Shown piece by piece: positions 149 through 33,909 of a stretch of DNA of 51,786 nt. The notes below the pieces were generated by a model. That model was not told where the DNA came from and made no database searches. It saw only the letters and a program-made list of their open reading frames with translations. Numbering within the stretch: the stretch's first letter is position 1; every line of letters starts with the position of its first letter. This DNA is from a virus. Taxonomy: Duplodnaviria; Caudoviricetes. The position numbers and the translations under genes were made by a program. Where the stretch lies: IMG/VR virus record IMGVR_UViG_3300025104_000002, positions 1 through 51,786 of that record. One strand, written 5' to 3'.

Positions 149-1654
149 CTGCGCGCATACATGGACGAGTTGCGGCAGAAACGTGCGATGACGAACCTAT
201 ACGCCACGATGGGTTGGAAGGAGAACTTCTCCCAGTTCGTCATTGGTGACACGATTCTGCGCCGCAACGCTGATGGCTCCGTCAGCGAGGAATCAATCGC
301 ATTGGCGTCCGGCTCGGCCCGACTCGGCCACGAGTTGTGGGGCACCGCTGGGTCGCTCGATGCTTGGGTCAACTTCACTTCTCTGGTCGCCAAGGCCGAC
401 CTTCGTGCCCACATGTTTGCGCTTGCCGTGGGTCTGTCCGGCCCGCTGTATGCGTTCACTGGCCTCAAGGGTCTGACCATCTCGCTGTACGGCCCGACAG
501 GCGGCGGCAAGACGCTGGCCCAGATGTGGATTCAGTCCATCTACGGCAACCCGGAGAAGCTGCACTTCGCAGCCAAGTTCACCCAGAACTCGCTGTTCGG
601 TCGCATGGGTCTGTACTCTCACATGCCCATGACCATCGACGAAGTGACCATGATGGACGACCGCGAGGTGGGCGACTTCGCATACTGGGTCAGTCAGGGT
701 CGTGACAAGGCGCGGATGAACCGCAACGCTGAGGAGCGTGACGCGAAGACGTGGGCACTGCCAGTGGTCGTATCCACCAACAAGTCCTTGAGTTCCAAGC
801 TGATCGCCAGTGGTCTGGACACCGACGCGCAGTTGGTCCGTATCCTCGAAGTCAGCGTACCGCCCAGCAAGATATTCACCAAAGACAGCACCGCTGGCCG
901 CAAGGTCTACGAGTTCATCACCAACAACTACGGTCTGGTCGGTCGGGAGTTTCTCAAGAAGCTGTTGGAGCTTGGTGACACCGGCATCCGTGCCACCATC
1001 GCGCAGGCCACCGAGGAGTTCCGCAGCAAGTACAAGGCCAACTTCACGGGCGAGGAGCGGTACTGGGAACAGGCCATCATCCTTGCCGACCTCGCCGCCA
1101 AGCTGGCAAAGGATTGGGGTCTAATCGCCTTCGACCACAAGCCCGGTATCGAGTGGGTTCTGGCTCAGGTCGGTGCCATCCGCCGCGCAGTGGCTGAGTT
1201 CAAGGTCGATGCGTTCGATCTGCTGACCGAGTATCTGAACGAGAACGCCGACGCCACGCTGACGGTGACGCAGACCGGGGCGAACAAACCCGTCGTGGAC
1301 TTCAGCCGCCTCCCCCGTGGTGAACTGCGTGTTCGCTTCGAGATGTATCGCAAGTCAAACGGCGACGCGTTCTCACGAGGTGTCGTGTTCCTCGACCGCA
1401 CCCACTTCCGTCGCTGGCTGGCCCAGCGCGGCGCGGACTACAAGACGTTCATGGGTGAGTTGCAGGAGGAAAACGTCATCGCCACGCCGAAGTCCAACAA
1501 GGCGTACCTCGGCAAAGACTCCCCGATCAAGCTGGGTCAGTCCTATGTGATCGGCGTGAACCTTGCGCACCCACGGTTGCAGGGTATCCTGAGCGACGCA
1601 GACCAAGCCATCGAGGACTTGGCCTACGGTCAACTCAAGTCGGTCACTCCGTGA
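1..1654 (+). CDS. Primase-helicase, C-terminal part (DUF927-like P-loop helicase)
   Basis: Walker A GPTGGGKT, Walker B MTIDE, GRDKAR and STN motifs; same frame as the ORF starting at 50443. Confidence 0.85.
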   Translation, partial: HWNRPHVGWQELTMRQALLTEGHRDFPTVLADQGIVLNNRNQTGYFQTMLRAYMDELRQKRAMTNLYATMGWKENFSQFVIGDTILRRNADGSVSEESIALASGSARLGHELWGTAGSLDAWVNFTSLVAKADLRAHMFALAVGLSGPLYAFTGLKGLTISLYGPTGGGKTLAQMWIQSIYGNPEKLHFAAKFTQNSLFGRMGLYSHMPMTIDEVTMMDDREVGDFAYWVSQGRDKARMNRNAEERDAKTWALPVVVSTNKSLSSKLIASGLDTDAQLVRILEVSVPPSKIFTKDSTAGRKVYEFITNNYGLVGREFLKKLLELGDTGIRATIAQATEEFRSKYKANFTGEERYWEQAIILADLAAKLAKDWGLIAFDHKPGIEWVLAQVGAIRRAVAEFKVDAFDLLTEYLNENADATLTVTQTGANKPVVDFSRLPRGELRVRFEMYRKSNGDAFSRGVVFLDRTHFRRWLAQRGADYKTFMGELQEENVIATPKSNKAYLGKDSPIKLGQSYVIGVNLAHPRLQGILSDADQAIEDLAYGQLKSVTP

Positions 1655-4600
1655 CGCCGTACAGGTCGAGAATCTGCTGAGTCTCGGGCCGCATCGCTTT
1701 CGGTGCGGCCCTCAAGTACCGCTCGGTGGCAGTCCGCTGGGCCTCACGCAGTGCCCGGTTGACGCCATCCTCGAAGTTGCGAATCTCAAGGCCGGTACCC
1801 TTGGCCGCTTCGTTCCAGTCCTTGACCATCTCCATCACTTCGCGGGCACGTTCGTTGTCCTTGGCGATCTTGGCCCCGACGTACATGCCTCGGTACATGG
1901 CGGCAACATCCTTCTGGTAGTCACCGATCCGCTTGGACAAGCGAACCACGTCGTTCTCGGCCACGGCTGAGGCAGGGTAGAAACCCAGCGCACGGGTCAG
2001 CATGGTACCAAGATGCAGGTCGTTGCTCACCACGTAGCCCTTCTGGCTGACGATGGCCCCGGCGTTGTTGTAGGCGTACATGTCGCCCAAAATGCGCAGG
2101 AACGCGACCGGCGACTCACGCAGAATCTTGTTGAGTGATGTGACATCCGGCAGGACACCGACAGTCTCCAGCCCATACTTGGTCAGGTCAGCACCCATTG
2201 CCACAGCACCTTGCAGGAAGGATGCCACCGGGCCAGCGATCTCGATCAGTTCACGCCCCACGTCTGCACCGGCCAGCGCAATGCCGGTGCCGGGGATGAT
2301 GTTGGACAGCGACACCCGGTCGGCCACGTTGGCTGGCGTGATGGTGTTGAGCAGACCGCGCATGAGGATCGGGGTCATGCCGGGAGCGATGGCGTCCAGT
2401 GCTTCAGCCAGCGTCTTCTCGGCGCTGCCCTTCCACACGGCACTCGGGCCAAGCCCAAGTCCTTGGGCGATGGTGTCGATGATGTCCATCAGGTCTTCAG
2501 CGAAGGGCAGACCCTTCAGACCGGCGAACATGGCGAGGATGCCCAGCGCCAGCAGTTGTTCCTTGCGCGGCAGCGCGGCCAGCATCTGAATGCTGTTGAC
2601 CGGGAACATCTTGAACACGAACAGGAACTGCCGCACGTCACCACGGAACATGGCGGGGCGGTTGAACATCGCGTACTCACCGAGCGTGTTGTCGATCATG
2701 TCCACGGCGAACTTGTCGGCCACCTCGAAAGCTGTTGCTTCGTCCTTGCCTTCCGACAGGGCGCGTGCATAGGCCATGCGGAACGCTGCCAAACCTGTTG
2801 CTCGGCGGCTGTGCTGCTCGGTGTAGTTGAACAGCGACATCCACGTCTCAGCCGCCTTCTTGGACAGACCAGAGCGGAACTTGCCTCGGGCAGAACCCAG
2901 CAGCGAGTTGGTCAGCGCGGCCTGCATGGTGCCACCGCCAACTTCCTTCTGCATGAAGCGGGCCTCAGCCTCGGTGAACCCAGATGCAGCCAGCTTGGCA
3001 GGGTCGGCCAGCAGGTCATCCCAGAACTTCACCTCGCTCTGACCGAAGCCCTTCGTGGCACCGATGGCGCGGGAGACTTCGACCGCCGACATACCCCATC
3101 CGAAACCACCGCCGAAGGCGTTCTTCTGGTTGTACCCAGCGAACGCGGGCAGCACGTTGGTCGCCAGCGCGAGGTAGTTCAGGATGGCCGTGGCAAACGA
3201 CGCACCCATGAAGCCGAAAGTTGTTGCCGTGCGGATGAACGACGCAGCTTCGCCCGACGCGAAATCGGTGTAGTCCACGTTGGACTGGGACTCCATGAAG
3301 GCCACGGCGCGACGGCCACGATCCTTGTAGCGATTGCCCATGATTGGCGATTCTTTGATCACGAACGTGAAGTGGTAGTCGTCGAACTCCCGCTTGGCCG
3401 CGAGCTTCGCAGCTTCGGGCATGTTCGGGTCTTTCTCGGCGGCTTCCCACGCAGCCTTGCGGCGGTCATACTCCACCTTGTCACCGAACCACAGGCGGAT
3501 GGAGTCTGGGTCGTTGTCGTCGAACAGGCGGTCGAGGCGGTGCCGGTTCTGCTTGCGGGCCACAGTGGACGCAGTTGCCTCAAGATGCTGCGACACGTAC
3601 TTGATGGTGTTCGGGTCTTCGCCCGGAGTGCCTGCACGCTTGAGGCGGGTACGCGCCTTGGCGTTCTGCTGGGTCAGACCGACGATCAGGCGCTCACGTT
3701 CCTCCGGCGTGATGCTGATGGAGAACCGGGTGATCGCGGAGATGATTTCGTTGAGGTTGGCCTCAGCCGTGGTGGACACGGTTTCGCGGGCTGTCTCGGC
3801 TTGCGCAACAAGTTTGACCTTCTTGATCACAAACTCAGTACCGTCCAGCACCTCCATCTCGAAGCCGCCTTCGACACTATCGAACAGCCCTTGGACACGC
3901 TCAGCTATCGCCTCGGCTTCGGCGCGGCTCTCGACCTGCACGAACAGAAGCTGCTGGCGGTACTGATCCGACACCTTGAAGACGCGACCCGTGCGGGGGT
4001 CAACGGCTTGGATACGCACCTGCCACGAGCCCTCACGACCGAACGGCACGTAGCCACCAGCGATGGATCGTTTGGCGAGCAGTTCAGCATCGGTCTTGCT
4101 CAACTCGAACAGCGCCAGATTCTGGATGGCCTGCTGCATGGCAAAGCGGTCGGGGCCGGAGCGCGGGATGTTGGAGCCTTCTTTCAGCGCCTCGATACCT
4201 TTGAACACATCGTCAGCCTCGGCCTGATCGAAGAAGTCCTGCACGTCCTTGTTGCGGTCGGTGTCGCGGCCCAGCACAGCGGCGTTGAACTTCTTGATGA
4301 AGTCGTTGGCAGCGGCCACGGACTCGCGCTTGGTCAGCATCACGCCACTGTCGTCGATGGTCGAACCCTCGGCCCGCAGGGACAGGTACTTGTCCTCGAT
4401 CTTCTTGAGAAATGCCTTGTCGTTCTCGGTCAGGGCACGACCGAGGAAGCGGGCCACAACACGTTCCACGTTGTCACGCTCACCTTTGGCCGCAGCGAAG
4501 TTCGCCAGCAGCATGTCGATGGCCGACTTGTTCATCGTGTCGCGCACCTCGTTGTACATGATCCACTCAAGGCTCTGCTCGGTCAGGTCGGGCATGGCGG

Positions 4601-7600
4601 GGAACGTCTGCTCCACCTCCTCAAGGTAGGACGGGGCGTCGATGCGCTTCTGGTACTCACGCTCGATGGCCTTGCGCTCCTTGTCGTTGGTGGCGAGGTC
4701 GATCTCACGATCACGCTCGGCCCGCAGGGCGGTACGGCGCTCCTCGGTCATGGGGCGCGGCACGGCGATGGTGTACTTGATGCCCTTCTTGAAGTCCTCC
4801 AGCGTGAACTTGCCACGGGCTGACAGGATGTCGAACACTTCTTGGTTCAGGCGAGCTTCGCCACCCTCGATGGTGATCAGGCTACCCATCTTGCGCAGTT
4901 CAGCTTCGGTCAGGTCGCCCAGCTTCACTCGGCTGGTTACGTTGAGCATGGCCGACGTGCGTGCGATCTGCGCCTCAGTGGCACCCTGCGTGAGTCCACG
5001 ACCCAGCACCTCCACAGCAGGAGACAGAACGGTGCTCATCATCTTGTTGTACTGCGCACGCAGTTGCGCTGCGGTCTTGCTGGTGTCGCGGAAGATTTCG
5101 TACAGGCGGCGGTAGCCTTGGTTCTCCCGCGCTGCGTAGTTCATCGTCTTGAGTTCGCCCTTGACTCGATCCCACACGTCTGCAATGTTGATGCCACGAT
5201 CCTTGACCTGCTGGAACAGGTTGGAGATGTCGAACAGCTTGAAGCTGCGCTGACCGAAGGCATTGGCTGCCGCCACCCGGTTGATCTCGTCGTAGTACTC
5301 ACCGGCCAGCGCGAAGCGGCCAGAGCCATCCGGGTCGGTCATACCTTCGATTGCAGCCATACGCTGGGCCATTACCCGGAAGTCCACGAAGCTGCCACTT
5401 GCTGCACCGTTGCGGACGTAGCGGCGAGACTGGCTCACGAGGTAGCGGGCAATGTCGTCGTCGAAGCGCACACCGAGCTTGTTCAGCGCGTTCTTCACGG
5501 CGTTCCAGAACCGGGCGATGATGTTGGTGTCCAGCATCCCGGCGAAGTCAGCGAGGTATTCCTCAGTGGCCTCACGGCGCGACATACCACGTGCCTTCAT
5601 GGCAGTGTCCACCGCAGCCTTGACCTTGGCGCTGGAGTTGTAGACCGCATCGAGCGCGGCGTTCAGTTCCCGCTCAGTCATCAGACCCCGGAAACCGAAG
5701 TGGCCCAGCGTCTCATGCGCCAGCACGAACCTCAGTTGCTGCTCGGTGGCAACCCGGTCAGCGAAGATGATGACGTTGCCGTCACCGAAGGAGTAGCCCA
5801 CGGCGTTGGCAGTGTCGAAGTCACCCTGCGGGCGCGAGGCTGCGGCCTGCGCATACAGCTTGGGGTTTTTGGCCTTGAAGTCCGCTTGGTTGCGGTAAAT
5901 CTGCACCTTGGGCTTGACGCCCAGCTTGGACAGGAAGGCACTCACCAACATCTTCACACGTCCCAGCGGGATCGGGTTGTTGATCGGCGTGCCGTCGTCG
6001 CGGAAGTAGCGACCATCGCCATAGTCATCGTCGCGACCAATGTTCCAGTCGTCCAGCGAGAACGGTGCCTCGTAGTCTTCGTCGGCAGCGATGTTGTCCT
6101 CGTCGATGATGCGCTCACGCTCGGCGCGAACGTCGTCGGTCATCTCCTCAGTGCTCACACGGAACAACCCCTTGACGGTACCAGAGTATGGGTTGCCATC
6201 GGCGTCGAAGTAGTCGGCCAGCATGTTGCCGTTCTGATCGACGAACAGTTCCATGTCCGCAGCACGGACAGCGGCCCACATATCGCGCAACTTCTTGTTG
6301 GCGTTCTCGCGCTGGGTCTTGTTCAGCGGAACCGTCTTCGTGTTGAGGCTCTTGATGTAGTCGGCCAGCGCGATGGCCGGGTTGCTGCGGGTGTCGTTCT
6401 TCAGGTTGGCGTCGGCTTTGCCGATGATGCCGCTGGCGGGGCCAACACTGGTCTTGTACTTCTTGGCCGTGTCCGCAGGCAGGTTTGCCACTCGCAGTTG
6501 TCCTGCGTCGAGCAGCTTGGTGGCGGTTTCAACCGACAACCCCTTGACCACGGTGGTGATCTGCGGCAGCAGGCCGCGCTGAGTGGCGTAGTCGAACCAC
6601 GGCTTGGACGCACCCTTGGTGGTGCCACGGGTGTAGACCGCTTCAACAGACGGCAGCGCATTGACCAGTTCGACCAGTGCAGCGTCGATGGCGTTCTGCT
6701 GGGCATCCGTGAACACAGTGTTCGCCAGCAGTTCGCGGGCACGCAGGACTGCGGCCTTCGTGTTGGTTTCCTCGCTGGTGAGGTAGGCAAACTCCACCAC
6801 GGTCCTGATCGCATCGCGGAAGTCGCGGATGTCAGTTGCCTCCTCGGCAGCAGCGAACTCGCTGTTGACCAGTTGCAGCGGGGTTTCCTCGATGTCACCA
6901 ACCAGTTGCTCGGCACGCTGCATGGTGGCCTTGCCCTCGGCCACGTCCTTGCGCCACTGGATGCGGACAGGTGCGGGCAGATCGTCGAACGCCGGAGCGC
7001 CCTCGGGCTTCATGTCCTCCCATGCTTCGGCAGGTGGAAGGGCTTCAACCTTTACCGGAGCGGGAGCGGCGGCGGGTGCCGTCGCGGCTTTTGGGGCGGG
7101 AGGAGTCTCATTCTTGTCCTTGCCCTTGTCCTTGCCGCGCTTCAGCGTTTCAGCTTTTGGGGCGGGAGTGGTCGCCTTCTCGCCAGCTTTCTTGGTCTTG
7201 TCGCGCTTCAACGCAGATTGAACAGCGGGTCGCTGCGCTTGCTCTTTGGCTTTGAGGGCTTCACCTTTTCTGGCAGTTTGCTTGTCGGTGGGTACTTCTG
7301 CTCCCACTCCTGCGCCAGTTTGGGATGCTTGGCGTGCAGGTACCGGCGTTGCGCTTGACTCTTGAACGGCACTTGGCGTCTCCCTGACGTTGATCTCCGC
7401 AACTGGGGCACCTTTCTTCAAACCACGAGCACCAGCAGTCCTGGTGGCGCGGGGCTTGGGCTGCGCAGGCGGCAACTTGGTTTTGACCCCCGCAGCACGC
7501 AGAGCGGCTACGCTCGGCTCGCCCTCTTGGGTGAACAGTGGAATCTGGGCACGGCGCTGGGCGGCGGTCTGAGGAATCTCGACCAAGGCTACGGGTAAAC

Positions 7601-9749
7601 CCGTACCCACGCCACGGCGCAGACCTTCGGCACGACTGGGCACCGGAGCCTGACGGCGAGTGAACAGGGGCAACTGCACCGGCTGGGTCGGGCCAGCTTG
7701 GCGCATGGGCATCGGCTGCTGCGGGACATCCTGTTGCTGTGCCTGTTGCAGCGTGAACAGGTCGCGTGCGTTCGCACTCTGCCGCGCAAGCTCCTCAGTT
7801 TGTTGTTGGATGAGTGCTTGCTGCTGAGCCTGCGCCGCCTCGAACTCGCGCTGACGCCGGATGCGGTCTTGGATGACCTGCAACTGGTTCGCCATCTGAG
7901 TGTTGAAGGGACCAGTGGGCGCAAGACCAGCAAACTGGAGCGCACCTTGGCGCGGATCGGCCTGCATGATCGGGGTGGGCGCGGGCGGTTCAGGTAGCGG
8001 AGCCTGCGGCTGCATCCGCGAAGCCAGTTCTTGGGCCGAGATTTGACCACCGAAGACATCCAGCACCCCTTGGGTACCGGGCGCACCGGGCGGGACATTG
8101 CCCTGCTGGCGCAGCATCTGGTCGGGGTAGGCCACAGCATCCGGCCCCATGCCAGCCATGATGACCGGGCCACCCATCGGCGTGACGGGCGGTACCGGGC
8201 CAGGAAGTTGGGGTACAGTGGTGGGGCCAGCCAGTTGCGCCGGAGGAGCAGCCATTGCCCCCATCGGAGTGACCGGGGTGTAGTACGGCTGAACCGCCGT
8301 GCCAGGGCCGGGAGGTTGAGTCTGGGGGGTCGTAGCCAGCGCACCACCGGGGGTTGGATCAGGACTCTGGGCCGGGTTGAGCAGGTTGGCAGGCTGCTTG
8401 CCACGCAGGTTGGCGACAGCACCGATGGGGCCACCGACACCGAAGCCAGCGGCGAACGAGTTGATCAGGCGGTTGACGTTCTCAGGCGACCCGAAGTCTT
8501 GGTCGGACAGCCCCAGCAGCAGAGCTTCCTGACCGAGTTCCGTGGTGCCTTCAGCAGTACCGCCAACCAGACCACCCACAGCGCCACGCTTGAGTAATTC
8601 GCCAGCCCGACCCACCAACGTGGGGGTCTTGGTAATGGTCTGGGTGCCACCGGGGATGGTCTTGGTAACGGAGGAACCGACCCCCATCGGGGCAGGAGCG
8701 CCCACACCCTTGAACACACGGGCTGCCAGCAGGAACTCGGGTAGCGTCTCCATGACAGCGTAAGGCACCGAGCCAGCCAGCGCCGTCAAGCGGGCGTTCA
8801 CATCGTCAGCATCAGCACCTTGCTCACGCAGTTCGCCGTAGATGTCAGCAGCACCCGTGGCAAGGTTCTGACCGTAGGACGCAGCCACAGCACCAGCGAT
8901 ACCGGCTGCTTCACGCAGCAGTTTTTGTTCTGCGGCGTTGAGCGCCTGCCCTTTGGCCTGCTTGGCGAGCGCAGACTTGACGCCTTCCTTCCACGCGGCT
9001 TTGCCCAACATGCTGGAGAACGCAGCGGCAGCACCGCCGACCGGGGTACCGGAGGCAGCGGCACCAGCGAGGAAACCGAGGCCCGCCGTGGCAATGGACT
9101 CGATTATGTTGGGGCCTTGCTGGGCAAAGTTCGCCACCAGCCACTCGACTGCACCGCGACCGGAGTCAATGTCCGTGAACTGGCGTTCGTATGGGCTGGT
9201 CTTGCGCAGGTCTTCCATTTGCTGGGCGACGATGCGACCACCCAACTCCTCGGCACCGGCCAATTGCAGACCGCGACCAGCCAACATCTGCATGACATCG
9301 ACACCGCGACCGAAGTTACGTGCCGCCAGTGTGCCCAGCGAGGGGTTCTTGATGGCCTGAACCAGTTGGCCGTAGGATTGGACGTCCAGCGGCACCCAGT
9401 CGCCGTCAGTGGGCAGCCCCGTGGGGGGGCCACCGAGTAGGCTCTGGGCTTCAAGGATGCCCTGTGCGTCGTCGGCATCGAGGGTGACGCCTTGCACGTA
9501 GAGTTGGTTGCGGGAGCGACTGAACGCAATCGACGGTTGCACCATCTCCGGCATGGTGAACTGATTTTGACGGGCAAGCTGGACACCTAGCCCACCCATC
9601 ATTGCCAGCGTGGACAGGTCGTCGCGCAGCGCGTCAGAACCCGACGCCGACGCTGCGTTCTGAAACCCGAACGGATTTACAACGGCAGAAGGGATGCCGT
9701 TTGCATCCTGATACAGAGGGTTTTCAAACGACAGTCCATTGGTTGCCAT
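1644..9749 (-). CDS. Giant (2701 aa) internal virion/DNA ejection protein with metallopeptidase-like motif
   Basis: Last gene of the virion operon; Ala/Gly-rich N-terminus, Pro/Gln-rich linker, LAHETLGHFG zincin-like motif, helical C-terminus. Confidence 0.7.
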   Translation of the reverse strand: MATNGLSFENPLYQDANGIPSAVVNPFGFQNAASASGSDALRDDLSTLAMMGGLGVQLARQNQFTMPEMVQPSIAFSRSRNQLYVQGVTLDADDAQGILEAQSLLGGPPTGLPTDGDWVPLDVQSYGQLVQAIKNPSLGTLAARNFGRGVDVMQMLAGRGLQLAGAEELGGRIVAQQMEDLRKTSPYERQFTDIDSGRGAVEWLVANFAQQGPNIIESIATAGLGFLAGAAASGTPVGGAAAAFSSMLGKAAWKEGVKSALAKQAKGQALNAAEQKLLREAAGIAGAVAASYGQNLATGAADIYGELREQGADADDVNARLTALAGSVPYAVMETLPEFLLAARVFKGVGAPAPMGVGSSVTKTIPGGTQTITKTPTLVGRAGELLKRGAVGGLVGGTAEGTTELGQEALLLGLSDQDFGSPENVNRLINSFAAGFGVGGPIGAVANLRGKQPANLLNPAQSPDPTPGGALATTPQTQPPGPGTAVQPYYTPVTPMGAMAAPPAQLAGPTTVPQLPGPVPPVTPMGGPVIMAGMGPDAVAYPDQMLRQQGNVPPGAPGTQGVLDVFGGQISAQELASRMQPQAPLPEPPAPTPIMQADPRQGALQFAGLAPTGPFNTQMANQLQVIQDRIRRQREFEAAQAQQQALIQQQTEELARQSANARDLFTLQQAQQQDVPQQPMPMRQAGPTQPVQLPLFTRRQAPVPSRAEGLRRGVGTGLPVALVEIPQTAAQRRAQIPLFTQEGEPSVAALRAAGVKTKLPPAQPKPRATRTAGARGLKKGAPVAEINVRETPSAVQESSATPVPARQASQTGAGVGAEVPTDKQTARKGEALKAKEQAQRPAVQSALKRDKTKKAGEKATTPAPKAETLKRGKDKGKDKNETPPAPKAATAPAAAPAPVKVEALPPAEAWEDMKPEGAPAFDDLPAPVRIQWRKDVAEGKATMQRAEQLVGDIEETPLQLVNSEFAAAEEATDIRDFRDAIRTVVEFAYLTSEETNTKAAVLRARELLANTVFTDAQQNAIDAALVELVNALPSVEAVYTRGTTKGASKPWFDYATQRGLLPQITTVVKGLSVETATKLLDAGQLRVANLPADTAKKYKTSVGPASGIIGKADANLKNDTRSNPAIALADYIKSLNTKTVPLNKTQRENANKKLRDMWAAVRAADMELFVDQNGNMLADYFDADGNPYSGTVKGLFRVSTEEMTDDVRAERERIIDEDNIAADEDYEAPFSLDDWNIGRDDDYGDGRYFRDDGTPINNPIPLGRVKMLVSAFLSKLGVKPKVQIYRNQADFKAKNPKLYAQAAASRPQGDFDTANAVGYSFGDGNVIIFADRVATEQQLRFVLAHETLGHFGFRGLMTERELNAALDAVYNSSAKVKAAVDTAMKARGMSRREATEEYLADFAGMLDTNIIARFWNAVKNALNKLGVRFDDDIARYLVSQSRRYVRNGAASGSFVDFRVMAQRMAAIEGMTDPDGSGRFALAGEYYDEINRVAAANAFGQRSFKLFDISNLFQQVKDRGINIADVWDRVKGELKTMNYAARENQGYRRLYEIFRDTSKTAAQLRAQYNKMMSTVLSPAVEVLGRGLTQGATEAQIARTSAMLNVTSRVKLGDLTEAELRKMGSLITIEGGEARLNQEVFDILSARGKFTLEDFKKGIKYTIAVPRPMTEERRTALRAERDREIDLATNDKERKAIEREYQKRIDAPSYLEEVEQTFPAMPDLTEQSLEWIMYNEVRDTMNKSAIDMLLANFAAAKGERDNVERVVARFLGRALTENDKAFLKKIEDKYLSLRAEGSTIDDSGVMLTKRESVAAANDFIKKFNAAVLGRDTDRNKDVQDFFDQAEADDVFKGIEALKEGSNIPRSGPDRFAMQQAIQNLALFELSKTDAELLAKRSIAGGYVPFGREGSWQVRIQAVDPRTGRVFKVSDQYRQQLLFVQVESRAEAEAIAERVQGLFDSVEGGFEMEVLDGTEFVIKKVKLVAQAETARETVSTTAEANLNEIISAITRFSISITPEERERLIVGLTQQNAKARTRLKRAGTPGEDPNTIKYVSQHLEATASTVARKQNRHRLDRLFDDNDPDSIRLWFGDKVEYDRRKAAWEAAEKDPNMPEAAKLAAKREFDDYHFTFVIKESPIMGNRYKDRGRRAVAFMESQSNVDYTDFASGEAASFIRTATTFGFMGASFATAILNYLALATNVLPAFAGYNQKNAFGGGFGWGMSAVEVSRAIGATKGFGQSEVKFWDDLLADPAKLAASGFTEAEARFMQKEVGGGTMQAALTNSLLGSARGKFRSGLSKKAAETWMSLFNYTEQHSRRATGLAAFRMAYARALSEGKDEATAFEVADKFAVDMIDNTLGEYAMFNRPAMFRGDVRQFLFVFKMFPVNSIQMLAALPRKEQLLALGILAMFAGLKGLPFAEDLMDIIDTIAQGLGLGPSAVWKGSAEKTLAEALDAIAPGMTPILMRGLLNTITPANVADRVSLSNIIPGTGIALAGADVGRELIEIAGPVASFLQGAVAMGADLTKYGLETVGVLPDVTSLNKILRESPVAFLRILGDMYAYNNAGAIVSQKGYVVSNDLHLGTMLTRALGFYPASAVAENDVVRLSKRIGDYQKDVAAMYRGMYVGAKIAKDNERAREVMEMVKDWNEAAKGTGLEIRNFEDGVNRALREAQRTATERYLRAAPKAMRPETQQILDLYGVTE

Positions 9750-29436: not shown

Positions 29437-31689
29437 TCACGTCCACCCCGCCGCAGGCAAACGCTTGATCTCGCGCCGTCGTTGAATAACACCGCCCTCA
29501 GATGCGTTATGCAAATGGAGCATCAGGTACTGCAAGGCTTCGGCCACGTGCGAGTGCTTGTTCTTGTCGATGTCGCCTTCGCCCTTGGGTTTGAAGCGGT
29601 ACCCGCCCATCATGGCCGCTTTGAGGTGCGTGCAGCGCGGATCGACAAGGAACGCCGGGTCGCCGTCCACCTGCCGCATTAGGTACTCGTCCACGGCGTT
29701 GATGCGGGCCGAGATGTTGTTGGTCTTGGCCGGGATGACCTTGAACCCCTCAGCTTTGATGATGTCCACCGCGCTGCGCTCGTCAGTTTGGGCACGTTGT
29801 ACCCCTGCGGGGTCAACGACGATGAGGACCGGGGCACCGGGGAAGCGTTCGTACAGCAGGGGGCGCAGCACCGTGCGGACAAACCGCTGGATGCCCATGT
29901 CGAAGCTCACCGCTTCGTCGAGGATGAGCGCCCGTCCACGGGGGTCTTGCTGCCCGATCACAGCCGCAGGCGTCAGACCCAAGTCCATGCCGATGACGAT
30001 GGGCCGCACCCCGTTGATAATAGGCCGGATGCGCTCCTTCGCCATGTGGTAGTCTGGTCGGAAGTACTTGTACACCGGCATCCCTGCGGATGACAGCCCG
30101 TACTCACCGTCGATGTAGACCCGGATGTACTCCTCCGAGCGACCCTGCGTATCGTAGTACCCGTCCGGCAGGTTCTCGATGTTCTCGGCGTAAGGGCTGC
30201 GGCCCGAGGGCTGCTTGAACACCTCCCACCCGTTGTTGTTGGGTGACACCCCATCTTTGGGATCGAGGTGTTCGAGTTGGTAGTACCACCACGTGTCCAT
30301 CGTCGGCGGGTTGGTGTCGCCCCACATGCCGTACCACGTCGGCCCGCCGTCCTTTGCAGATGGGTACCGCCCGATCCGCTTACTCATCGCATCCACGATG
30401 TCCGGGTGGATGTCGCGGCATTCGTTGAACCACGCGAAGGTCAATTCCAACGAGTTCAGGTTCGCCACGTCATCGGCATCGTCCAGCGCCCGGAACATGA
30501 TCTCGCACTCCACGTCGCCCACCTTGAAGAAGTAGGTCTTCGTGGTCTTCAGGTACTCGCCACACACACCCGGTGGGAACCAGTCGAGGAACGTCTTGAT
30601 GGTCGTGTCCTGCAACTGGCGAGCGGTTTCACGGACGACGGCTGCACGGGTCTTGCGGATGCCGTTCGCGTTGGGTGCCTGCATGGAGGCACGACGCACG
30701 ATCTCGAACGAACAAGTCACGCTCTTGCCTGAGTTGTGGTGAACCGTCCCATCCACAGTCACATAGTTGTTGGTATCGAGAACCTGCATATCCCAATACA
30801 CCTGCTTGAAAGGCAGACGCTCTATGGATACAACGGTCCCGTCGGACACGGAGTTTCTGTATGAACGCGAACACGCAGCGAATAATCGAACTTTCCAACG
30901 GGCAACGCTCGTCCGTAGAGATCGCAGAGCTTGTCGGGCTTTCCCCTCGCTACGTTCGGAAAGTAATGAAGAAGTTCGACCTCCCGCGTTTTGGAGAGGG
31001 TGCTCAGTCGGGATCACGCAACCACCAGTTTGTGTCTGGACGGCGAGTTGACCATGATGGCTACGTCCTAGTAGCCGCCCCCAAAGACCACCGATACGCA
31101 CGGCAACCGTCTGGGCGAAAGACGAAAGTAATTTTCGAACACCGGCTGGTGATGGAGCAAAAGCTGGGTCGATATCTGCTTCCCGAAGAAGTAGTTGACC
31201 ACGTAGACGGGCTGACTCTGCATAACGCGCCAGATAATCTACGGCTGTTTGCGTCAAACAGTGAGCATCTGGCTCAGACTGCGACAGGGCCGCGTATGTG
31301 GTCTCCAGAGGGGGCGAAGAACATAGGTGCAAGGACTGACCGGGGCGTAGAGATTCAACGGGTTGATAGCTATGGTCAGCGCAGAGCACGCGGTGAAATC
31401 CGGCTGCAACAAATTCTCCTCGCAGCGTTGTCACTCGGTATAGATAGTCCTTTCCTTTTGGGAACGCACCGCCACTTGGAGAAAGCTGGTATCGACCCGT
31501 CTTGTCGTTCCAACTTAGAACGCGCACTGGCCGATCTATACGCTCGATGGGGATGGCCCCCTCCTCAGTTTGGATAAGGGTACCACCTGCGACACAGCCG
31601 ACCGGCCCCATGAGGACGCGCATCTTGGCGTCCGAGGCCATGAACTTCCTGCCGGTGGGCGGGGGTGTGTAGTTGATGTCAAGCGGCAT
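29437..31689 (-). CDS. terL: Terminase large subunit precursor with one intein (about 462 aa spliced)
   Basis: Walker A split as GPVG|intein|SGKS; WFNE Walker B, DTNPP, GMDLGLTPA and HSHVAEALQY nuclease motifs. Confidence 0.92.
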   Translation of the reverse strand: MPLDINYTPPPTGRKFMASDAKMRVLMGPVGCVAGGTLIQTEEGAIPIERIDRPVRVLSWNDKTGRYQLSPSGGAFPKGKDYLYRVTTLRGEFVAAGFHRVLCADHSYQPVESLRPGQSLHLCSSPPLETTYAALSQSEPDAHCLTQTAVDYLARYAESARLRGQLLLREADIDPAFAPSPAGVRKLLSSFAQTVAVRIGGLWGRLLGRSHHGQLAVQTQTGGCVIPTEHPLQNAGGRTSSLLSERSEGKARQALRSLRTSVARWKVRLFAACSRSYRNSVSDGTVVSIERLPFKQVYWDMQVLDTNNYVTVDGTVHHNSGKSVTCSFEIVRRASMQAPNANGIRKTRAAVVRETARQLQDTTIKTFLDWFPPGVCGEYLKTTKTYFFKVGDVECEIMFRALDDADDVANLNSLELTFAWFNECRDIHPDIVDAMSKRIGRYPSAKDGGPTWYGMWGDTNPPTMDTWWYYQLEHLDPKDGVSPNNNGWEVFKQPSGRSPYAENIENLPDGYYDTQGRSEEYIRVYIDGEYGLSSAGMPVYKYFRPDYHMAKERIRPIINGVRPIVIGMDLGLTPAAVIGQQDPRGRALILDEAVSFDMGIQRFVRTVLRPLLYERFPGAPVLIVVDPAGVQRAQTDERSAVDIIKAEGFKVIPAKTNNISARINAVDEYLMRQVDGDPAFLVDPRCTHLKAAMMGGYRFKPKGEGDIDKNKHSHVAEALQYLMLHLHNASEGGVIQRRREIKRLPAAGWT
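30733..31596 (-). mobile_element. Intein in the terL Walker A motif (288 aa)
   Basis: Begins CVAGGTLIQTEEG, block B-like AAGFHRV, block F VYWDMQVLDTNNYV, ends VHHN before Ser+1; no LAGLIDADG or HNH in frame. Confidence 0.92.
30861..31577 (+). CDS. HTH-HNH homing endonuclease encoded antisense inside the terL intein
   Basis: GGAG SD 7 nt before ATG; HTH SVEIAELVGLSPRYVRKVM; DGYVLV..P.DH and EHRLVMEQKLGRYLLPEEVVDHVDG...NAPDNL. Confidence 0.85.
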   Translation: MNANTQRIIELSNGQRSSVEIAELVGLSPRYVRKVMKKFDLPRFGEGAQSGSRNHQFVSGRRVDHDGYVLVAAPKDHRYARQPSGRKTKVIFEHRLVMEQKLGRYLLPEEVVDHVDGLTLHNAPDNLRLFASNSEHLAQTATGPRMWSPEGAKNIGARTDRGVEIQRVDSYGQRRARGEIRLQQILLAALSLGIDSPFLLGTHRHLEKAGIDPSCRSNLERALADLYARWGWPPPQFG

Positions 31690-31877
31690 CAGTGCTCCCT
31701 GAGTTCGCCAGACTCGTACTTCTCACGCTGGTCGAGCGCGTTGTGGATGATGACACACGGTTCTTCCTCGTCTGGCGTCGGGTGGCACCAGCAGGCAATG
31801 CTTGTCTCGTGCTCCCGCAGATCGTTCAGTGGCACCACGTGGATCAGGTCATCCGTGCTGCGGTACATGGACTTCAT
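31689..31877 (-). CDS. Hypothetical small protein with His/Cys motif
   Basis: HVVPLNDLREH...CWCHP...HNALD; stop overlaps terL ATG. Confidence 0.7.
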   Translation of the reverse strand: MKSMYRSTDDLIHVVPLNDLREHETSIACWCHPTPDEEEPCVIIHNALDQREKYESGELREH

Positions 31878-32073
31878 CCGGGCCTCCTATCAGCAAAATA
31901 ACAAACTCACGACCACGCTTCTTGGACCGGGTAATGTGCGCCCGGTACGACTTACCCTGCCGGCGGAGTTCATTCTCCACGGTGATGGCCTCACTGGCGC
32001 TGCGCAGCTTCAGGGCCTTGAAGCCCTCGTAAGTTTGGGTGAACAGTTCTTCAATGTTCGATGGCAGTTGCAT
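31849..32073 (-). CDS. Hypothetical protein
   Basis: 74 aa overlapping terS end and the next gene. Confidence 0.55.
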   Translation of the reverse strand: MQLPSNIEELFTQTYEGFKALKLRSASEAITVENELRRQGKSYRAHITRSKKRGREFVILLIGGPDEVHVPQHG

Positions 32074-32712: not shown

Positions 32713-32800
<88 letters not shown>

Positions 32801-32838: not shown

Positions 32839-32923
32839 AATGTGTCGATGCAGCAATCGTGCTGCAAGACAGAGTGGGTGCAATCCCGCACCCGTTCTTT
32901 CACAACCTGTACTGGAGGTTACT

Positions 32924-33223
32924 ATGTCTGCAAAAACCTTTGAAGGTTCCGTGTCCATCGTCAAAAATACCAAAGGCGAGATTGCTCTCAAGCGTGACCC
33001 CGAAGGTAGGTTCTCGGCAGCGAACGCCGCCGAGTGCTACGCCAAGATGATGGAGCTTTGCAAAAGGCTCAAGTCGCCGGTCAACAAGTATTCCTTGTTC
33101 ATCGCTGATGGCGGAACCGAGCCAGTGATGTTGGCGAACCGCTTTGGCAATCCGTACATCGCGCTTCTTCCGAAGCGCGGCGATGGCAACGTCAAGCGTA
33201 GCGCAGTGACAAAGCTGGCCTAA
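32924..33223 (+). CDS. Early protein, paralog A (99 aa)
   Basis: GGAGG SD; clear similarity to 35229-35528. Confidence 0.85.
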   Translation: MSAKTFEGSVSIVKNTKGEIALKRDPEGRFSAANAAECYAKMMELCKRLKSPVNKYSLFIADGGTEPVMLANRFGNPYIALLPKRGDGNVKRSAVTKLA

Positions 33224-33226
33224 GTT

Positions 33227-33260
33227 GAACCCCGGCCCCTAGCGGGCCGGGGTTCTTTTT
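33227..33260 (+). terminator. Intrinsic terminator
   Basis: 12-bp stem GAACCCCGGCCC/GGGCCGGGGTTC, 5-nt loop, T5 tail. Confidence 0.85.
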
Positions 33261-33275
33261 CCACTGGAGAACACC

Positions 33276-33362
33276 ATGAGCGATGACGCGAAAGCAATCA
33301 TCGGCGCAATCATCTTCGCGCCCATCTTCTACTTTCTGTTGGTCGTAGTGATGAGCGTCTAA
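33276..33362 (+). CDS. 28-aa single-TM peptide
   Basis: GGAG SD; MSDDAKAIIGAIIFAPIFYFLLVVVMSV. Confidence 0.6.
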   Translation: MSDDAKAIIGAIIFAPIFYFLLVVVMSV

Positions 33363-33402
33363 CAACCGGGCCGCACAAGCGGCCCATCTTCTGGAGAGTG
33401 AC

Positions 33403-33909
33403 ATGAACTACGAATTCGTTCCTGGCGACACCATCGAAATCAAGTCCGGCAAAGTCCTTCACAGGATCCGGGCTACAACTTATATTGAGCCGCAAGGTGT
33501 CAAACCCGGCAATCTCGGCGGGTACATTGAGAGCTCTAGAAACCTCTGCGGCAACGCCTGGGTCTGCGGCGAAGCCCAGGTCTGCGGCAACGCCCAGGTC
33601 TGCGGCAACGCCCAGGTCTGCGGCAACGCCCAGGTCTGCGGCAACGCCATGATCAATGAGAACGGTCTCATCTTCTGGGCTTCGAAAGTGGGTAGTGAGA
33701 ACGGAACGCTCACGGTCTACAACACGACGTCCAACGAGCTCGAGGTGACGCGCGGCTGTTTTAGCGGCTCGGTCGATGATTTCTTAGCCGCGTCCAAGGC
33801 TAAGCACGACGACGACACGCACCGCGAATACCGGCTGCTGATCGAGGTCGCTGTGTCTCGCATCACACGCGCACGCGAACGGCTGGAGCAAACACGACCG
33901 AGAAACTGA
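33403..33909 (+). CDS. Hexapeptide-repeat (left-handed beta-helix-like) protein
   Basis: LGGYIES..NL followed by CGNA(W/Q)V repeats on 18-bp DNA repeats; C-terminal VTRGCFSGSVDDF. Confidence 0.85.
   Translation: MNYEFVPGDTIEIKSGKVLHRIRATTYIEPQGVKPGNLGGYIESSRNLCGNAWVCGEAQVCGNAQVCGNAQVCGNAQVCGNAMINENGLIFWASKVGSENGTLTVYNTTSNELEVTRGCFSGSVDDFLAASKAKHDDDTHREYRLLIEVAVSRITRARERLEQTRPRN

Follow-up and report, generated by a model that had tools for sequence, protein, structure and literature searches.

An antisense HTH-HNH_3 nuclease gene inside the terminase intein of a tailed phage, a probable homing element read on both strands

We studied the virus record IMGVR_UViG_3300025104_000002 (Duplodnaviria; Caudoviricetes), a stretch of 51,786 bases with an estimated completeness of 94%, hereafter called the window, in which the gene for the terminase large subunit (TerL) contains an intein, and the intein in turn contains, on the opposite strand, the gene of an HNH nuclease. 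The TerL precursor is one continuous open reading frame (ORF) on the minus strand (29437-31689, stop codon included, 750 amino acids), which matches Pfam Terminase_3 (E 3.9e-5, 23.7 bits against a cut-off of 23.2) and the terminase large subunit family phrog_2 (E 8.2e-26). It is composed of an N-extein of 31 amino acids ending with the first half of the Walker A motif, GPVG (31597-31689, minus strand), a class-1 intein of 288 amino acids (30733-31596, minus strand), and a C-extein starting with the second half of that motif, SGKS (29437-30732, minus strand, stop codon included), while in intein-less relatives GPVG runs straight into SGKS. On the plus strand lies the HNH gene (30861-31577, 238 amino acids plus stop), with an ATG start and a Shine-Dalgarno-like GGAG (30850-30853, plus strand) 7 nt before it. 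The initial annotation, made from the letters of the window, had described an antisense gene with a helix-turn-helix (HTH) and an HNH core wholly within the intein in the TerL P-loop, the C-terminal portion of the gene covering the N-terminal splicing blocks and both strands being open; our analysis bears this out, and the limits that it gave for the intein and for the HNH ORF are exact to the base.

The intein starts with Cys1 at 31596 and ends with Asn at 30733, between GPVG and SGKS, and has a block-B histidine (His68), a terminal His-His-Asn and a serine at the +1 position. In 44 intein sequences C1, H68, H286, H287 and N288 are invariant, and the +1 extein residue is Ser in the window, Thr in Pectobacterium phage Ymer and Cys in the locus L210; the last has the junction HHN-CGKS and an intein of 344 amino acids. 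In the AlphaFold (AF2) model residues 1-95 and 250-288 are confident beta lobes, with a predicted local distance difference test score (pLDDT) of 88-98, so that the intein is divided into an N-terminal splicing lobe (codons 1-95, 31312-31596, minus strand, pLDDT 88-98), of which codons 8-95 are read on both strands, a linker (codons 96-245, 30862-31311, minus strand), which is the antisense of the N-terminal two thirds of the HNH gene, and a C-terminal splicing lobe (codons 246-288, 30733-30861, minus strand, pLDDT 93-96). Compared by Foldseek, the ordered part matches the Ssp DnaB, DnaE and Mtu RecA mini-inteins (best E 2.9e-7, template modelling score on the target 0.72-0.86) and no endonuclease domain, and the model thus predicts a HINT fold built from the N- and C-terminal lobes; the Pfam Intein_splicing match stays below its cut-off (E 0.015, 15.6 bits against 35.8). 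The linker has a pLDDT below 50 at residues 136-219 and 228-247 and is predicted to be mostly disordered, with a frame that stays open without conservation at the protein level. Two other assignments of the insertion were rejected: a sense-strand endonuclease domain, since the linker is disordered in the model and matched no nuclease, and a group I intron with an antisense nuclease, since the frame is open and the HINT motifs are present. Within the otherwise disordered linker, residues 112-132 (31201-31263, minus strand), opposite the catalytic core of the HNH protein, form a predicted helix with a pLDDT of about 79-91, which may be either a by-product of the conservation of the HNH frame or a real structural element.

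The antisense product is modelled with confidence throughout (pLDDT 88.7, predicted template modelling score 0.72), and the structure prediction that the initial annotation had proposed as a check gives an N-terminal HTH, an HNH core and a helical C-terminal domain. Amino acids 1-41 (30861-30983, plus strand) resemble HTH domains in the VIA comparison (Z 5-6.7, root-mean-square deviation (rmsd) 1.2-2), with HTH Pfam families all below their cut-offs (E 0.003-0.07). Amino acids 49-142 (31005-31286, plus strand) form the catalytic core, for which Pfam HNH_3 (PF13392) is found above its cut-off (E 5.3e-7, 29.6 bits against 24.8) and the top VIA match is I-HmuI, 1u3e (Z 6.9, rmsd 3.6 over 80 residues, 26% identity; Foldseek E 0.18). 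The residues H94, R95, D113, H114, H121, N122, N126, N133 and H136 are invariant in 52 HNH sequences. The C-terminal helical domain, amino acids 146-238 (31296-31574, plus strand), lies opposite the N-terminal lobe of the intein, has a pLDDT of 91-96 at residues 170-230, and presumably binds DNA. Searched as a whole against the PDB with Foldseek, the HNH model, which is multi-domain and elongated, gives nothing at E <= 0.001. At the sequence level, 676 homologous proteins are found at E <= 1e-5, and the family phrog_10730, "HNH endonuclease", matches over the full length (E 4.3e-55), while other PHROG families align only within residues 4-169. The nearest outside relatives are free-standing phage HNH_3 genes (phiH, Thibault, Streptomyces phages), and those phage HNH genes whose records do not show the antisense layout align only within residues 5-175, about 60 residues short of the end of the C-terminal domain. 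A profile of this domain, run against 1.84 billion representatives, finds only 45 proteins, in all of which the domain stands at the C-terminal end, the protein being either about 220-300 amino acids long or a fragment.

Based on an alignment of the HNH proteins, we then scanned IMG/VR for the same layout and obtained 254 relatives, the best 80 of which were taken; together with the window and two GenBank phages they make 83 rows, with 66 distinct HNH proteins and 57 under 90% identity. The pairwise identity of the HNH proteins across loci ranges from 37 to 99%, with a median of 56%, and hence the sample is not near-clonal. Across the span of the HNH gene, each of the 83 rows has a single minus frame without stops, the other two containing 2-23. 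A scan of genome contigs gave only 8 matches, all in contigs of metagenome-assembled genomes (MAGs), whose taxon labels are unreliable for phage DNA, and the seven matches of full length likewise show one minus frame without stops along the HNH gene. One MAG contig, L204, labelled as an uncultured actinobacterium, encodes an HNH protein 100% identical to that of the window with the same TerL and intein, and is probably a contig of the window phage binned into a bacterial MAG. Intein boundaries were set by a pattern script in 76 rows (with the N-terminal boundary misplaced in L035 and L051), and the relation of the two frames is constant in all 76, HNH codon positions 1, 2 and 3 standing opposite intein positions 1, 3 and 2. 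Of 48 loci, 45 have a distance of 119-134 nt between the HNH start and the end of the intein, and in 47 the HNH stop falls 16-49 nt short of the intein start. Every insertion found is in the TerL Walker A motif, and the seven rows outside the pattern have a variant P-loop, GPVG-STKT or SSKT, at the same site. A non-canonical Walker A of this form, in which STKT or SSKT takes the place of SGK[ST] after GPVG, is seen in L070, L075, L076, L078, L083 and L087.

Nine GenBank phages with a named host carry the layout, namely seven Pectobacterium phages, Dickeya phage Setonix and Pseudoalteromonas phage PHS3. Nothing interrupts the minus frame in the two GenBank loci examined, those of Ymer and PHS3, and since the only TerL gene identified in these two loci is the one with the layout, the intein-carrying gene must yield a working terminase. 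The existing annotation of these loci differs from ours: in PHS3 (L002, 1703-3829) TerL is annotated only downstream of the intein (1703-2878), with the HNH protein as a separate gene, and in Ymer (L001, 1628-3892) the TerL precursor of 754 amino acids is labelled hypothetical. The paper on the Ymer genus mentions neither an intein nor an HNH protein.

Both frames are held open by selection. For seven diverse loci one protein was kept fixed, its codons were redrawn from the usage of the phage itself, and the stops on the opposite strand were counted. When the HNH protein is recoded synonymously, the minus strand gains 3.75-8.87 stops on average and is open with a probability of 0-0.0085, the values for the window being 3.75 stops and 0.001. 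When the intein is recoded, the plus strand gains 2.55-8.98 stops on average and is open with a probability of 0-0.061, with 2.55 stops and 0.061 in the window. The dipeptides of the HNH proteins tell the same, as phenylalanine followed by I, M, T, N or K, which forces an antisense stop, occurs at none of the 346 Phe residues in 120 homologues, against about 66 that the composition would predict. The nucleotide diversity by codon position, taken over the 57 non-redundant loci, shows which of the frames is selected opposite the linker: in HNH codons 1-150 the third position is the most diverse (0.41-0.70), followed by the first and then by the second, and therefore the plus frame is under selection there, while in intein codons 96-245 the highest diversity is at position 2 (0.62) and the amino-acid diversity is 0.74.

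The situation is different in the last 88 or so HNH codons, about 270 nt, which lie opposite intein codons 8-95 and where diversity is low at all three codon positions. The third-position diversity of the intein is 0.37 in codons 8-95, against 0.68 in codons 1-7 just past the HNH stop, 0.54 in the C-terminal lobe and 0.69 in the C-extein, and at conserved four-fold-degenerate intein codons it is 0.35 in the overlap (n=15, four sites invariant) against 0.70 (n=8). As the diversity is lowered at third and at four-fold positions, sites silent for the intein are constrained in the overlap, which is expected if the C-terminal domain of the HNH protein is a selected protein; both readings of the overlap are under purifying selection. 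Recoding of the N-terminal lobe alone gives a median of 2.34 plus-strand stops and a median probability of 0.064 for an open frame. Of the two readings it is the HINT lobe that is widely distributed, which would make the HNH frame the younger one here, overprinted on the other. We therefore raise, as a tentative proposal that we hold to be possible but somewhat less than even in probability, that the C-terminal domain of the nuclease arose when the strand opposite the ancient HINT N-terminal lobe was overprinted, such that the same 270 nt or so encode a beta-rich lobe and an alpha-helical, presumably DNA-binding domain, both of them folded and selected. If this is true, nuclease and intein form a single inseparable mobile unit, from which the core can be deleted and the rest cannot be shed by the intein, and the locus offers a datable case of the de novo origin of a domain across strands.

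The distribution and the decay of the element point to mobility. A scan with the C-extein of the window found at least 597 relatives, and among the 80 closest that were examined (86-91% identity) 78 are uninterrupted (GPVG-SGKS) and two carry the intein. The same intein and nuclease are found at the same junction in the TerL group of the window, in the Pectobacterium Ymer group and in PHS3, and between such groups the HNH proteins are 46-56% identical, while no more than 8% of the C-extein residues are identical, or BLAST finds no match between the C-exteins. These comparisons indicate that intein and nuclease have spread over unrelated TerL families, at least three of them, and the Pfam labels of 104 intein-bearing proteins include both Terminase_3 and Terminase_6; a fourth extein group (L061, L062, L082) may stand apart only because its C-extein contains a second intein. 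Most inteins have 276-302 amino acids, and shorter forms of 145-215 also occur. The protein P0187 is 99% identical to P0143 on either side of a clean in-frame deletion of 136 amino acids (residues 138-273), which takes out the linker, on the other strand of which the HTH and the HNH core are encoded, and leaves a mini-intein of 145 amino acids. Two diverged mini-inteins, L171 (146 amino acids) and L211 (161 amino acids), keep a recognisable remnant of the HNH C-terminal part and none of the core, and in L171 residues invariant in intact HNH genes are altered by substitutions silent for the intein. Thus, the loss of the part of the nuclease that does not overlap leaves mini-inteins of working size. 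The 24-nt flanks of alleles with and without the intein have no clear distinguishing positions. Some TerL precursors with this intein are long (977-1150 amino acids) and have further Pfam intein or LAGLIDADG_3/Hint_2 matches (L061, L062, L075 and L082; P0139, P0147, P0166, P0168, P0191, P0200, P0205 and P0211), and these probably hold a second intein downstream.

As to expression, GGAG, GAGG or AGGA is present upstream of the HNH start in 44 of the 57 non-redundant loci, while the rate in the remaining 15-nt windows of these ORFs is 7.8%. In the minus-strand block of about 31 kb, six ORFs of which were scanned against PHROGs, no plus-strand ORF other than the HNH gene was found to match a family. 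A terminator scan of 30300-31900 gives none. Of 24 RNA-library runs, all available as contigs, four (X5, X12, X1, X19) were compared with the region; contigs from two libraries cover parts of it, and they show neither joints nor an intein-less form. The selection on the HNH frame suggests that the protein is expressed.

Taking these results together, we consider it probable that the locus is a mobile class-1 intein in the TerL Walker A motif, served by a free-standing and separately expressed antisense HTH-HNH_3 homing endonuclease. The homing endonuclease would then be a separate gene of the plus strand and not a domain of the intein polypeptide, and the intein frame opposite the first 150 or so HNH codons is only a stop-free linker, predicted to be disordered, that joins the two HINT lobes. 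TerL would be translated through this linker, with splicing of the intein to give a terminase of 462 amino acids, while the HNH protein would be made from its own plus-strand message by means of the conserved Shine-Dalgarno motif. In a co-infection the nuclease would bind intein-less terL and nick or cut it at or near the site coding for GPVG/SGKS, and the repair of the cut allele would copy in both intein and nuclease, the C-terminal domain of which may have arisen by overprinting on the older HINT lobe as proposed above. Cleavage of the intein-less Walker A DNA, as the initial annotation had foreseen, is indirectly suggested by the invariant insertion point, by the 78 of 80 relatives that are intein-less, and by the unrelated TerL families.

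Several points weigh against this interpretation, in whole or in its details. The loci are related by descent, and so the 83 of 83 rows are not 83 independent trials. The match of the core to I-HmuI is moderate (Z 6.9), the AlphaFold confidence of the C-terminal domain could be inflated by the conservation that the intein imposes, and the target site of the nuclease is deduced from the insertion point only. The recoding of the overlap is weak for the window itself, the plus strand staying open with a probability of 0.285 and the minus strand with 0.69, and the remnants of about 88 HNH codons in the mini-inteins L171 and L211 are still stop-free, from which it follows that the openness of the overlap is partly a by-product of the intein sequence. 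A scan of 30300-31900 for sigma-70 promoters gives none, where 0.7 would be expected, an outcome that is uninformative for this phage; the RNA-library material consists of assembled contigs without strand or ends, and counts neither for nor against transcription. The initial annotation had argued that the nuclease needs its own transcript, and this part follows from the geometry; the uncoupling of homing from late terminase expression that it had drawn from this is speculation.

The same evidence has to be set against other explanations of the antisense gene. HK97-type (gp74-like) small HNH proteins encoded beside terminase genes are required for packaging. A gene inside terL might thus encode a packaging accessory, as for the cleavage of ends in cos phages, and not a homing enzyme, and might merely sit in the intein; HNH proteins beside terminase genes are indeed common in phages (PMC3592412). 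The protein here, however, is of the HNH_3/I-HmuI type with an HTH and 238 amino acids long, 78 of the 80 TerL proteins closest to that of the window have neither intein nor HNH gene at the site, a point against an essential role, the nuclease core is missing from one of two TerL precursors that are otherwise 99% identical, and the element is found in unrelated TerL families, so that we regard such an accessory as quite improbable. Somewhat less improbable, although still unlikely, is that the nuclease is a free-standing homing endonuclease for which the intein is a harmless landing pad, with the cut made elsewhere, for example in nearby terL, and the intein dragged along by co-conversion. The nearest outside relatives are free-standing phage HNH_3 genes, an origin of this kind has been proposed for antisense intein nucleases (bioRxiv 10.1101/2025.01.02.630785), and the flanks of the site have no sharp difference between alleles with and without the intein; on the other hand, all loci have one and the same insertion point, also across unrelated TerL families with little in common besides the P-loop, and the roughly 88 shared codons physically interlock nuclease and intein.

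It may also be asked whether the linker frame is translated as one chain at all. If terL were a fractured gene with a split intein, the two halves would splice in trans around the nuclease gene, for which there is a precedent (PMC2677866) and with which a disordered linker would agree, but in that precedent all three ORFs are on one strand, whereas here a single ORF of 750 amino acids is opposed by an antisense nuclease, and none of the 83 rows has a closed minus frame though recoding predicts 4-9 stops; this explanation is very unlikely. One may also see in the plus-strand ORF a relic in decay, or an antisense ORF that is open by chance and has no function; what speaks for this view is that GC-rich coding DNA yields long antisense ORFs by chance. 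It is contradicted by the HNH_3 match above the cut-off and the catalytic residues invariant in 52 sequences, by the diversity dominated by third positions in the HNH frame, by the probability of at most 0.061 for an open plus strand with the intein recoded, by the enriched Shine-Dalgarno motifs, by the 676 homologues at E <= 1e-5, and also by the non-clonal loci (37-99% identity, median 56%), and we find it hardly credible. The mobile intein with its own antisense homing endonuclease is thus the interpretation kept below.

Outside the intein, the minus strand of the window carries large ORFs from about 1.6 to 32.5 kb, including the portal/adaptor and terminase genes, the former of which adjoins the TerL ORF. 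Among them is a single ORF of 2701 amino acids (1644-9749, minus strand), of which only the C-terminal 500 or so residues match PHROGs, namely phrog_11358 and phrog_21376, both of unknown function. A perfect (ACGC)x22 microsatellite (32713-32800) lies between this packaging and structural block and the genes of the plus strand, whose starts are near 32840-33403; it results in long ORFs of repeated tetrapeptides in several frames. An 18-nt tandem repeat of 5.8 copies (33545-33648) lies within the ORF 33403-33909 on the plus strand and encodes hexapeptide repeats; the product of this ORF matches phrog_7964, of unknown function (E 1.8e-54).

The results are of interest in several respects. They would add a very abundant HNH type to the short list of inteins with a separate antisense homing enzyme, described so far for LAGLIDADG and VSR-like nucleases, and support the route of intein evolution in which a free-standing nuclease invades a mini-intein. 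The locus is an unusually clean natural case of antisense dual coding, in which constraint can be measured in both frames, and it exposes a systematic annotation error, as gene callers give the nuclease or the terminase and not both. Moreover, the carriers with named hosts (the Pectobacterium Ymer group and Pseudoalteromonas PHS3) make splicing through a disordered linker of about 150 residues, antisense expression within a late operon, and homing directly testable.

Among known systems, I-HmuI (PDB 1u3e) is the closest to the catalytic core, with which it shares the modular arrangement of nuclease and helical DNA-binding parts, the phage origin and, to judge from the moderate structural match, possibly the HNH core fold. 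I-HmuI is a nickase encoded on the sense strand of a phage group I intron. Here, in contrast, the carrier is an intein, the gene is antisense, the core follows an HTH, and the profile search for the C-terminal domain turned up no relative beyond its own family. The fractured genes (Dassa et al. 2009, PMC2677866) are alike in having a separate nuclease gene at the place of the endonuclease domain and in coming from phage-like environmental DNA, but there the host gene with its intein is in two ORFs that share their strand with the nuclease, while here one continuous ORF is faced by an antisense nuclease. The hidden HNH of the ShiLan type in phage DNA methylases (Arsenault et al. 2025, PMC11855218) shares with our locus an in-frame stop-free insertion, an HNH in another frame and a poorly structured loop; it differs in lying on the same strand (frame 3) and without splicing domains, and not antisense within a HINT intein.

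The nearest systems are the inteins with antisense nucleases. Antisense LAGLIDADG nucleases have been reported in the inteins of Synechocystis dnaX and of a Chloroflexus SpoVR-like protein (Gorbalenya 1998; Gogarten 2002, as cited in bioRxiv 10.1101/2025.01.02.630785), and antisense LAGLIDADG and VSR-like nucleases in inteins of actinophages, TerL included (Gosselin, Arsenault, Gogarten, bioRxiv 10.1101/2025.01.02.630785); the novelty that the initial annotation implied was therefore too high, antisense homing nucleases in inteins having been described in 1998, in 2002 and in the 2025 preprint. In the text of the preprint, HNH is listed only as an in-frame intein domain, and second ORFs are typically outside the splicing domain; a description of an antisense HNH within an intein was not found in the literature searched, supplements and most subscription journals being outside its coverage. 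The inteins of the preprint and the present one are alike in that the intein is contiguous and the nuclease has an ORF of its own on the opposite strand, in the stretch that separates the splicing lobes, in that the in-frame reading of this stretch is unstructured, in a sporadic distribution that suggests ongoing homing, and in having TerL among the hosts. They differ in that the nucleases there are LAGLIDADG or VSR-like and here HNH_3 (I-HmuI-like) with an HTH, in that the ORF here exceeds the region between the lobes and runs for about 88 codons over the N-terminal lobe under a double constraint, and in that the carriers there are actinophages and here environmental and proteobacterial phages. 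What is new here is thus the HNH_3 type, the roughly 88 codons shared with a splicing lobe, the abundance in environmental and proteobacterial phages, and the spread over unrelated TerL families.

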